A DNA stretch of 64,000 nucleotides, taken from positions 656 through 64,655 of the forward strand of contig LCQW01000006.1 in assembly GCA_001004345.1 (NCBI GenBank), given 5' to 3'. Source of the stretch: Candidatus Kaiserbacteria bacterium GW2011_GWA2_52_12. Lineage in GTDB: Bacteria > Patescibacteriota > Minisyncoccia > Phycocordibacterales > UBA2100. The stretch's first letter is position 1; each line of letters begins with the position of its first letter. Positions 17,262 to 18,765 of the stretch are shown piece by piece. The position numbers and the translations under genes were made by a program. The notes below the pieces were generated by a model, which ran no database searches, was not told the DNA's origin, and saw only the letters and a program-made list of their open reading frames with translations.

Positions 17262-17698
17262 ATGAGAACTTTTGTAAGAACACTGCCCTCTGCGACGATC
17301 TCATCGCCACGTTTTATTACGACACTGATTTCGAGGAGTTGTGCCGCATCAGTTTTGTGCGCGATTGTCCCCGACACGCGTACACTCTGCCCCACGTGAA
17401 CGGGTTTTTTGAATTCCAGGGTTTCTTTTACGAGGAGGCAGTATTTTCCGGGCAGTTGCATGCCAACGAGCCGCGATACAAGTACACCGAGATACATGCC
17501 GTGCACAACTATTTCTTTAAACTGCGTCGTCTTGGCATACGCCGCATCTGTATGCAATTCATTGTGATCGCCGGAAATATCGGCAAATGCTCGTACATCT
17601 TTTGCAGATATCGCGTGCTCAAAAAAAGCGTTTTCACCGACTGTGAACGATGCGTATGTTCTCACCGTTGAAGATCCTCTCATACGATCTTTATCCAT
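17258..17698 (-). CDS. MaoC-like (R)-specific enoyl-ACP/CoA hydratase/dehydratase (hot-dog fold)
   Basis: DHNELHTD and HGMYLGVLVSRLVGMQLPG hot-dog motifs. Length 146 aa. Confidence 0.65.
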   Translation of the reverse strand: MDKDRMRGSSTVRTYASFTVGENAFFEHAISAKDVRAFADISGDHNELHTDAAYAKTTQFKEIVVHGMYLGVLVSRLVGMQLPGKYCLLVKETLEFKKPVHVGQSVRVSGTIAHKTDAAQLLEISVVIKRGDEIVAEGSVLTKVLI

Positions 17699-18765
17699 TC
17701 AGGTCTTTCTATTTTATTGGTAGATATTTTTAGTTCTGCGCCGAATACCCGGTCCACGAACTCTCTCGCTGGTTCGTTCTTCTCGGATTTTTCGAATGTG
17801 ACACTGATCGTTTTTGCACCTGCTTCTGATGCGCGCGATCCGATCTCGGCCATAAACGCATCCTCAATCCCCCGTCCGATGACCCTACAGCTCATAAGTA
17901 ATGACTCAATGTGCCAAAGATCTTTTTCCTTGCGCACAAGCGCAAATGCAATGATCCCATGGTCACCAAACTGATCTACTGCTCTCGCATGGAAAACAGC
18001 ATGATCTTCGGAATCTACGAACTTTTGGATCTCGGCCTCAGTCATCGGACGCTTTTTGACATTGAACTGATTCGTCTTTCCCGTCATTTGAGAGAGACGC
18101 GCAAGTACACTTGCGTCATCTTCAAAAAATTGCAACTCCATATCGAGACTTTTCAAAAAAGAGCCGCGATCTGCGTATTCTTTCTCGGCCGCCTTTCGCA
18201 GACGCTCCGTGACGTACATGTTGCCACGCATTTTATCTTCATCGGTTACGGCGCTTGCGGCGAAATACGGCAGTGAATGCAAAAATTTGACATACCGCGC
18301 CGGATCTTCGGGCATCTCCGGTGTCTCCACTTCCGGCACGAGCATTCGTACACTTTCCCTATTGTGAGGACTATCGTCGAGAAATATCATCGAATCGAGT
18401 CCGATATTGAGTTCTTTGGCCAACTCACGCATATTATCGGCCTTTTCGGCCCAATTAATGCGCATTGCTGCGAAATGACCTTCCTTTAAGATCATGTTGG
18501 GATTTGTCCTGATGACGGCAAGTGCGTCCTCGGGATTATTTTTGCTGTTGATCGCGAGAATAATGCCACGATCGTACAGATCGCGGAGCGCTTGTTGAAA
18601 TGCGATGAAATAGGCGCCGGGAGGAGTGAGCGAAAGCGCTATTCCATCAATGCCGTCTTCTCCCACCACGCCACCCCACAAAGTGTTGTCAAGATCGAGA
18701 ACAATGCACTTTTTCATACAATCTCTGATAGAGGAACACTCTCGACAAGGAGACTCATAGATCAT
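17680..18765 (-). CDS. FkbH-like protein (HAD-superfamily subfamily IIIC; glyceryl-ACP-forming phosphatase/transferase) with a C-terminal GNAT-like domain
   Basis: CIVLDLDNTLWGGVVGEDG matches the FkbH signature. The HAD core is followed by a GNAT-like C-terminus. Confidence 0.65.
   Translation of the reverse strand: MIYESPCRECSSIRDCMKKCIVLDLDNTLWGGVVGEDGIDGIALSLTPPGAYFIAFQQALRDLYDRGIILAINSKNNPEDALAVIRTNPNMILKEGHFAAMRINWAEKADNMRELAKELNIGLDSMIFLDDSPHNRESVRMLVPEVETPEMPEDPARYVKFLHSLPYFAASAVTDEDKMRGNMYVTERLRKAAEKEYADRGSFLKSLDMELQFFEDDASVLARLSQMTGKTNQFNVKKRPMTEAEIQKFVDSEDHAVFHARAVDQFGDHGIIAFALVRKEKDLWHIESLLMSCRVIGRGIEDAFMAEIGSRASEAGAKTISVTFEKSEKNEPAREFVDRVFGAELKISTNKIERPEWIKIV

Follow-up and report, generated by a model that had tools for sequence, protein, structure and literature searches.

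Enzymes of the FkbH family load a glyceryl unit onto an acyl carrier protein (ACP) in polyketide synthase (PKS) and nonribosomal peptide synthetase (NRPS) pathways. In the mechanism described for OzmB, 1,3-bisphosphoglycerate gives phosphoglyceryl-S-OzmB and then glyceryl-S-OzmB, from which the group is passed to the ACP (PMC9057759), and the same glyceryl loading has been reported for other members (PMC8949500, PMC7489565). The loading modules of FR901464 and lankacidin, of the form FkbH(GAT)-ACP-DH-KR, go further, and their dehydratase-ketoreductase (DH-KR) part has been demonstrated to convert glyceryl-S-ACP to lactyl-S-ACP (PMC4765723). A gene of this family lies in a stretch of 64,000 nucleotides from Candidatus Kaiserbacteria bacterium GW2011_GWA2_52_12 (contig LCQW01000006.1, positions 656 to 64,655; hereafter the window), where a preliminary description had proposed a glycerate-derived acyl decoration of a sugar. 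On account of the FkbH identity, the conserved motifs and a glycan locus free of PKS genes this proposal stands as the best reading, and with reasonable confidence we assign the gene to a stand-alone carrier-dependent pathway in which an amino sugar of the cell surface would receive an N-acyl group made from glycerate, with no polyketide involved.

FkbH genes in glycan loci are common and have been noted before (cj1302, PMC7099621; CA_C2199, PMC4000134; BF1531, 3slr). In Campylobacter jejuni, Cj1295 is a DUF2172 protein (PMC6321876) whose expression is required for 5-N-(2,3-di-O-methylglyceroyl) pseudaminic acid on flagellin and for which removal of the 5-N-acetyl group has been proposed (PMC3068675); the N-acetyltransferase Cj1296/7 adjoins it, and the locus also includes the FkbH-domain gene cj1302 (PMC7099621). 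The neighbours of Clostridium acetobutylicum CA_C2195 are an aminosugar N-acetyltransferase, an ACP and an 'aminosugar N-acetyltransferase + HAD phosphatase', and CA_C2195 itself has been proposed to act in modified-carbohydrate biosynthesis, possibly in sugar amide deacylation (PMC4000134). Tannerella forsythia has an N-glyceroyl pseudaminic acid, the basis of which was called 'a major challenge' (PMC5378307), and glyceryl and lactoyl are both listed among the prokaryotic nonulosonic acid modifications (PMC8157484).

Judged by the published descriptions, the window resembles the cj1295-cj1304 flagellin-glycosylation sub-locus of C. jejuni NCTC 11168 in its DUF2172/DUF4910 protein, N-acetyltransferase and FkbH-domain gene, and differs from it in having a MaoC-like protein and a short-chain dehydrogenase/reductase (SDR) where the C. 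jejuni product implies methylation. The same core set is described for CA_C2195-CA_C2199 (3k9t), although there the HAD/GNAT protein was not recognised as FkbH and neither MaoC nor SDR is listed (PMC4000134). This Cj1295/CA_C2195-type set (DUF4910 protein, AAC(3)-like transferase, ACP and FkbH in a glycan locus) is complete in the window; among the related loci considered below, L001 has it colinear throughout and L020, L030 and L063 in part.

The 361-residue open reading frame (ORF) that encodes the FkbH protein (17680..18765, - strand) is real, and the FkbH/HAD-IIIC motif named in the preliminary description, LDLDNTLWGGVVGEDG, was found as residues 23–38 of its translation. The family call needed NCBIfam, as Pfam holds no FkbH model and returned borderline Acid_PPase/NIF matches only. 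The TIGR01686 model ("FkbH domain") gave 304.7 bits, far beyond chance, against a curated cut-off of 146.65 (E=6.9e-91), with ORF residues 17–339 aligned on profile positions 2–316 of 323; FkbH itself was thus the best profile match, and not an unrelated HAD phosphatase, and the HAD-IIIC model TIGR01681 matched with 81 bits. More than 8000 database proteins match the protein, many at 60–82% identity, and a short ENA metagenome contig (L087) carries an identical copy, with WavE and MaoC as its neighbours there too. Since nearly all homologues are ~345 residues long and start with MKKC, the true start is probably Met17, at 18717. Membership of the FkbH family is hardly in doubt, and the protein is a conventional member of it; glyceryl-ACP loading is its likely activity, as judged from these sequence features.

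A comparison of 85 family members, three of them from PKS/NRPS contexts, placed the catalytic residues (numbered here from Met17). HAD motifs I–IV are all kept with respect to the PKS/NRPS-linked proteins, as D8/D10/T12 (the DxDxT nucleophile), S58, K92 and D114-D115, and these residues, like S276-C277-R278, are conserved in 85/85 sequences with a single Ser-to-Thr change at S58. The cysteine of the transferase half, which the preliminary description had named as a point to check, is therefore present throughout as Cys277. It lies in a segment, LLMSCRV, that aligns with LLMSCRV in the Bacillus cereus protein and FLLSCRS in Streptomyces, at what we take, from the OzmB study, to be the position of the acylated cysteine. 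The B. cereus FkbH is plasmid-borne and stands in a genuine NRPS/PKS context (hybrid NRPS/PKS, LLM oxidoreductase, ABC exporter, HAD-IIIC, NRPS, alpha/beta hydrolase, NRPS), an order that presumably corresponds to zwittermicin zmaK-zmaQ, in which case the protein would be ZmaN; the two Streptomyces proteins are longer polypeptides (~645–685 residues) of which the FkbH region makes up one portion. The window protein shares 29% identity with the B. cereus FkbH over 314 residues (E=2e-40), and identity to the sampled PKS/NRPS-linked members is only ~29–32%.

The AlphaFold2 model of the protein (pLDDT 86.9, pTM 0.83) was compared with known structures by Foldseek. Its N-terminal half matches the HAD phosphatases BF1531 (3slr) and MDP-1 (1u7p), whereas the C-terminal half matches many GNAT acetyltransferases (8osp, 5hmn, 9mto and 7n1l among them) with probability 1.0 and target TM of 0.6–0.7, which confirms the GNAT-like C-terminus claimed earlier. 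In the model, Cys277 sits right after a β-strand and directly before an R-x-x-G-x-G loop. This loop resembles the pyrophosphate-binding loop of GNAT enzymes, and we infer that a phosphopantetheine arm would bind there. BF1531 from Bacteroides fragilis is the top Foldseek match and the sole solved structure that also matches by sequence (147.5 bits over the HAD half), but it has an extra N-terminal domain and its solved part is the N-terminal portion with the phosphatase domain; a search for a solved full-length FkbH structure gave none, the HAD part of BF1531 being the only one available.

Translational coupling joins three genes, FkbH-MaoC-SDR, of which FkbH comes first. Its TGA stop overlaps the ATG of MaoC (ATGA at 17683-17680), and the TGA of MaoC overlaps the ATG of the SDR in the same manner (ATGA at 17261-17258). 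The best PDB matches of the MaoC-like protein are the PhaJ-type (R)-specific enoyl-CoA hydratases 5cpg/1iq6, with the hydratase Asp/His kept, and the nearest solved structures to the SDR, in which YxxxK is present, are acetoacetyl-CoA reductases and FabG (3-oxoacyl-ACP reductases). This coupling of a dehydratase and a reductase to FkbH, which the preliminary description had missed, suggests that the glyceryl unit is processed further, perhaps to lactyl. The proposed chemistry and order are the same as in the FR901464 and lankacidin modules, where loader, dehydratase and reductase are likewise genetically coupled. In contrast to them, the window enzymes are discrete, the dehydratase is a single-hotdog MaoC/PhaJ-type protein and not a PKS DH, and the product would go to an amino sugar via an N-acyltransferase with no ketosynthase. 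By analogy, the trio may work like such a module and is not a member of that group.

The remaining components are arranged differently from those of the closest relatives, in which a gene for a 76-residue ACP lies between FkbH and MaoC (L001:11047-11277, L007:3310-3570). In the window, the ACP of this type (ACP2) is found directly 3' of the DUF4910 protein and the AAC(3)-like transferase NAT_b on the + strand, and AcpS lies inside a second carrier-protein module, between an M29-like protein and an aminotransferase. All seven cassette genes fall within 13 kb, flanking that second acyl-activating module, and they adjoin NeuB and a CMP-sugar cytidylyltransferase. The window cassette is, on comparison of the gene sets, a rearranged version of that of the relatives. 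The DUF4910 protein matches CA_C2195 (PDB 3k9t) with 504.7 bits; for NAT_b, the NCBIfam AAC_3 families stay below cut-off and the PDB matches are FrbF and AAC(3)-IVa. ACP2 was paired with FkbH by inference from sequence comparison: each of the 49 ACPs lying no farther than ~10 kb from an FkbH gene in related loci matches ACP2. The DltC-like ACP1 was rejected as the partner, as 0/49 resemble it.

Table 1. Features of the window, with their proposed roles where these are putative. Positions count from the first letter of the window.
Feature	Position	Strand	Evidence
FkbH-family protein (HAD-IIIC phosphatase + GNAT-fold acyltransferase domain with Cys277)	17680..18717 (probable start; ORF to 18765)	-	TIGR01686, motifs, fold
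MaoC-like (R)-specific hydratase/dehydratase, single hotdog	17258..17698	-	PF01575 66.7 bits
Short-chain dehydrogenase/reductase, ketoacyl-thioester reductase type	16572..17261	-	adh_short_C2 87.4 bits
ACP2, FkbH-cognate-type acyl carrier protein	8135..8380	+	PP-binding domain; DSL serine present
AAC(3)-like NAT_b, proposed acyl-ACP:aminosugar N-acyltransferase	7312..8112 (ORF up to 7114)	+	PF02522 118.4 bits
DUF4910/DUF2172/HTH_47 metallopeptidase-like protein (Cj1295/CA_C2195 family), proposed sugar de-N-acylase	5984..7243 (ORF to 5915)	+	Pfam DUF4910 361.4 bits
AcpS-type phosphopantetheinyl transferase	11744..12127	-	PF01648 64.7 bits; TIGR00516 73 bits
NeuB-family nonulosonic acid synthase, candidate acceptor pathway	2789..3658	-	PF03102 270.7 bits
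CMP-sugar cytidylyltransferase, candidate acceptor pathway	514..1266	-	PF02348 95.9 bits
Gmd, GDP-mannose 4,6-dehydratase, alternative acceptor pathway with DegT	19868..20896	-	PF16363 408.8 bits
DegT-family sugar aminotransferase	28200..29348	-	PF01041 448.9 bits
AAC(3)-like NAT_a	8420-9202	-	
Stand-alone AMP-ligase	9189-10757	-	
M29 aminopeptidase-like protein	10754-11740	-	
Class I/II aminotransferase	12131-13285	-	
DltC-like ACP1	13388-13660	-	
Weak VOC/glyoxalase-like protein	13732-14436	-	

The window in its full 64-kb length is a glycan locus, with many GT4, GT2 and PMT_2 glycosyltransferases together with sugar dehydratases, epimerases, a carbamoyltransferase, a C-methyltransferase, an AT3-SGNH O-acyltransferase and an ABC exporter; gmd, the DegT aminotransferase and the glycosyltransferases that had been listed as neighbours are all present. 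No ketosynthase, FabH, acyl-CoA dehydrogenase or NRPS condensation domain was found in the window, in agreement with the location outside a PKS/NRPS context given before, and its only adenylation-type match is the stand-alone AMP-ligase. Among the Pfam matches of the window there is no 3-hydroxyacyl-CoA dehydrogenase or small O-methyltransferase, and no tRNA or rRNA was detected in it. Two known uses of FkbH enzymes were rejected: a methoxymalonyl/hydroxymalonyl-ACP pathway (FkbG-K, OzmB-G, ZmaD/E/G/N), for want of an acyl-CoA dehydrogenase and a 3-hydroxyacyl-CoA dehydrogenase in the window, and a tetronate glycerate-utilisation operon, for want of a FabH/ketosynthase homologue there. Compared with FkbH, OzmB, ZmaN and the tetronate loaders, the protein is of similar length (345–361 residues; OzmB 366), and it shares with them HAD motifs I–IV, the Ser-Cys-Arg triad, the HAD plus GNAT-fold architecture and a discrete partner ACP (PMC9057759). 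Its surroundings are unlike theirs, since FkbG/I/K-type proteins (O-methyltransferase, acyl-CoA dehydrogenase, 3-hydroxyacyl-CoA dehydrogenase), FabH-like partners and PKS/NRPS genes are missing from the window, where the partners are MaoC, the SDR, the AAC(3)-like transferase and the DUF4910 protein in a glycan locus.

Two sugar pathways could provide the acceptor. The NeuB homologue (289 residues) gives matches that end at about position 275 of the ~330-position NeuB and PseI profiles; it has no SAF domain in Pfam, whereas the NeuB of L001 has one, and it stays below the NCBIfam cut-offs (NeuB_NnaB 304 vs 399.65; PseI 243 vs 340.25). The DegT protein scores as ArnB-like (413 bits) and PseC-like (359 bits), neither of which reaches its cut-off.

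The 80 best genome loci were gathered via an FkbH alignment and their six-frame ORFs scanned with the window proteins; the neighbour counts obtained are lower bounds, as single-sequence queries were used and many contigs are incomplete. The closest named relatives of the FkbH protein belong to Candidatus Saccharibacteria (70% identity) and other Patescibacteria (57–65%); beyond these, members occur across numerous further bacterial phyla and, among archaea, in Nitrososphaerales, Marine Group I and DPANN lineages. Of the 80 loci, 42 have an ACP2-type carrier no more than 1 kb from FkbH, 23 have MaoC within 3.5 kb, 18 the SDR within 4.5 kb and 17 AcpS within 2.5 kb; for the sugar genes, DegT was found within 10 kb in 17/80 and NeuB, at the same distance, in six. 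Only one locus of the 80 has a ketosynthase near FkbH, and because the other 79 have none, a non-PKS context is the rule for this FkbH clade. The placement outside PKS clusters made in the preliminary description was right; the surprise that it implied was overstated, given these counts and the precedents cj1302, CA_C2199 and BF1531.

The closest relatives keep strictly to the order AcpS-FkbH-ACP-MaoC-SDR, and in close relatives (Saccharibacteria and other Patescibacteria) NeuB is often a neighbour of the cassette genes. The colinear block is seen in L001, L007, L008, L010 and L073, and L009 shows the same order with the SDR cut by the contig end; AcpS is immediately upstream of FkbH in L001 and L007–L011. 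In L001 an AAC(3)-like N-acetyltransferase gene and one for a DUF4910 protein come before the block, and a carbamoyltransferase, an epimerase and NeuB come after it. The AAC(3)-like gene also belongs to an FkbH/ACP operon in L007 and, with or without DUF4910, in Woesearchaeota (L020), Staskawiczbacteria (L030) and Sporomusa aerivorans (L063). FkbH(-ACP)(-MaoC) cassettes at 44–49% identity, sometimes with AcpS and the AAC(3)-like gene, were found in Nitrososphaerales/Marine Group I (L016, L019, L021, L023) and DPANN archaea (L020, L024, L027). With such cassettes in ammonia-oxidising and DPANN archaea, the carrier-dependent sugar-acylation set crosses domains.

The pathway proposed here is drawn, at every step, from sequence, fold and gene context. 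AcpS would turn ACP2 into its holo form, and FkbH would take D-1,3-bisphosphoglycerate onto Cys277 as a thioester, its HAD domain stripping the 3-phosphate, so that the GNAT-fold domain could hand the glyceryl group to holo-ACP2. MaoC would eliminate the 3-OH (glyceryl to enol-pyruvoyl to pyruvoyl-S-ACP) and the SDR would reduce the 2-keto group of pyruvoyl to give lactyl-S-ACP. The DUF4910 protein, of the Cj1295 family, would free an amino group by N-acetyl removal, and NAT_b would move the acyl group from ACP2 to the freed amine. The preferred acceptor would be a nonulosonic acid from the nearby NeuB and CMP-transferase genes, with a Gmd/DegT-derived 4-amino-6-deoxyhexose as the alternative. 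The parts of this scheme are not equally secure: use of the FkbH/ACP2 product for sugar N-acylation is probable, on a nonulosonic acid as the acceptor our judgement is evenly divided, and lactyl as the final group is a tentative assignment on which we lean to doubt.

Several observations weigh against the pathway as drawn. Unlike its relatives, the window has no ACP gene separating FkbH from MaoC, which overlap at 17680–17698, and the presumed partner ACP2 is ~9 kb away on the opposite strand; the "adjacent ACPs" of the preliminary description are in fact not adjacent, ACP1 being ~4 kb and ACP2 ~9 kb from FkbH. Behind MaoC, several FkbH-ACP-MaoC loci carry not the SDR but a GNAT, NAT, AcpS or HAD_2 gene; as the SDR is not universal, lactyl is the weakest link. 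MaoC and the SDR also resemble a PhaJ/PhaB pair, which makes (R)-3-hydroxybutyryl thioesters. DUF4910 proteins are without canonical metallopeptidase catalytic residues (PMC4000134), and their role as de-N-acetylases is for this reason hypothetical. As to the acceptor, NeuB is less frequent than DegT in the related loci (6/80 vs 17/80), and Gmd/DegT are as near to the trio as NeuB is to the ACP2 operon.

In the first of the alternatives an unmodified glyceroyl (2,3-dihydroxypropanoyl) group ends on the sugar, as in the Pse5Am7Gra of Tannerella forsythia, and MaoC and the SDR act on another substrate or after transfer. Nonulosonic acids with N-glyceroyl or di-O-methylglyceroyl groups are known from structural work (PMC5378307, PMC3068675), and FkbH has an ACP nearby in more loci than it has MaoC (42/80 within 1 kb vs 23/80 within 3.5 kb). 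However, the ATGA overlaps join FkbH, MaoC and SDR in the window, the closest relatives all show the three in colinear order with the ACP and the trio encodes no other source of a thioester substrate, so that we regard this outcome as unlikely, though worth keeping in view. A far smaller chance is given to the fusion of a HAD sugar-phosphate phosphatase with an ordinary GNAT aminosugar N-acetyltransferase, a user of acetyl-CoA that would act directly on sugar intermediates and not as an ACP loader. This is how CA_C2199 is annotated (PMC4000134), and the GNAT fold of the C-terminal half and the phosphatase-only Pfam matches would fit it, but the FkbH-specific model scored far above its cut-off, the invariant Ser-Cys-Arg is common to PKS/NRPS-linked FkbH proteins, and the ACP (42/80) and AcpS (17/80) found nearby would be needless for an acetyl-CoA enzyme.

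Still less probable is a PhaJ/PhaB-like role in which MaoC and the SDR supply an (R)-3-hydroxybutyryl thioester, the commonest N-acyl of nonulosonic acids, separately from FkbH. Their nearest structures, (R)-specific enoyl-CoA hydratases and acetoacetyl-CoA reductases, agree with it; no thiolase or ketosynthase that could make the C4 unit was found in the window, though, and the two enzymes would be redundant routes to one product while the tight FkbH-ACP coupling would be left unexplained. N-alanyl nonulosonic acids exist, and pyruvoyl-ACP might be transaminated to alanyl-ACP for an N-alanyl sugar by the class I/II aminotransferase, which adjoins AcpS and ACP1. This gene belongs to the AMP-ligase/ACP1 module rather than to the FkbH cassette, the cassette of the relatives lacks it, and the SDR would be left without a role, all of which makes the alanyl route very improbable. 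Finally, a cryptic polyketide or fatty-acid-like small-molecule pathway merely placed in a glycan locus is the least credible of all, for although the biochemically characterised FkbH enzymes in the searchable literature are all from PKS/NRPS pathways, the window lacks ketosynthase, FabH, acyl-CoA dehydrogenase and condensation domain, a ketosynthase was seen in 1/80 related loci, and every neighbour is a sugar-pathway or export gene. The stand-alone pathway to a glycerate-derived N-acyl group is retained, as no rival explains the invariant cysteine, the dedicated ACP/AcpS and the ATGA-coupled MaoC/SDR together as well.

The second carrier-protein module of the window (8420-14436, -) runs parallel to the FkbH set. 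The repeated pattern of a peptidase-like protein, an AAC(3)-like transferase, an ACP and a loader hints at a second N-acyl swap; no homologue of the M29-like protein was seen in 86 related loci. A wider scheme can be drawn from both sets: a self-contained acyl swap, with its own AcpS and ACP and discrete FkbH, MaoC and SDR, would lead from a glycolytic intermediate to lactyl-ACP and to N-lactoyl on a nonulosonic acid, with the second module re-acylating the other amino group. We consider this full version rather unlikely. An own AcpS and ACP may suit an organism of the Patescibacteria kind, in which fatty-acid synthesis is limited or absent. If the full version is true, the two modules together would provide a first explanation, in genes and enzymes, of the way in which sialic-acid-like sugars of bacteria and archaea acquire N-acyl groups of the glyceroyl and lactoyl type.

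A second FkbH subtype, rich in Bacteroidales, carries a FabH-like ketosynthase III (KSIII) and a FabG-like reductase in place of MaoC. The FabH scan gave 12 matches, one of which is the Streptomyces locus that was the source of the FabH query; the FabH-like KSIII is thus found near FkbH in 11/80 loci, mostly Bacteroidales (L036, L041, L042, L047, L048, L051, L053, L054, L058, L059 and L067). The arrangement suggests that in this subtype the glyceryl unit is chain-extended to a C5 acyl group. C. jejuni presumably has a similar pairing, of cj1302 with the fabH-like cj1303.

A discrete FkbH-ACP-MaoC-SDR cassette linked to an AAC(3)-like transferase and to a member of the Cj1295 family is undescribed in the searchable literature, which also holds no biochemical assignment of FkbH proteins from glycan loci; a literature search for FkbH with O-antigen returned nothing, and FkbH with polysaccharide and ACP gave irrelevant papers only. 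As the FkbH gene itself is a conventional family member, the value of the locus lies in the pathway hypothesis and not in the protein. Unusual N-acyl groups on surface amino sugars (glyceroyl, di-O-methylglyceroyl, lactoyl) shape phage and immune recognition, and few of the genes for their synthesis and attachment have been assigned; in the locus and its colinear relatives a compact set is available for direct testing. AcpS, FkbH, ACP, MaoC, SDR, the AAC(3)-like transferase and DUF4910 would tie glycolysis to sugar N-acylation via a carrier protein, and such a pathway would explain why FkbH homologues abound away from polyketide clusters, with Patescibacteria, Thaumarchaeota and DPANN archaea among their hosts.

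Other genes of the window deserve a brief description. A WavE-family gene (18831-19856, +) is divergent from FkbH; the same pair stands on the identical ENA contig L087, and in L011 a WavE homologue is 5.8 kb from FkbH. Between a GNAT gene and NeuB, in the nonulosonic-acid operon, a TIM-barrel protein (2016-2792, -) matches the MbnB/TglH/ChrH (MNIO) family of maturases of ribosomally synthesized and post-translationally modified peptides with 61.9 bits and AP_endonuc_2 with 25.6 bits, below cut-off; the MNIO maturase family is unexpected in a sugar pathway. An AbiEii-type nucleotidyltransferase toxin gene (25478-26191, -) lies between the carbamoyltransferase and a GT4 gene, and a 191-residue ORF upstream of it (region 25478-26756, -) is possibly its antitoxin. 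Two overlapping ORFs between glycosyltransferase blocks (35420-40895, -) encode a 1023-residue AAA_5 (McrB/dynein-like) ATPase and an 839-residue transglutaminase-core protein, a pair that may serve in defence or remodelling, apart from glycan synthesis. Three unusual fusion proteins are encoded on the - strand: GFO_IDH_MocA with an FAD oxidoreductase (46785-48785, 666 residues), UDP-glucose/GDP-mannose dehydrogenase with GT4 (55188-57065, 625 residues) and a double GT4 (56939-59251, 770 residues).

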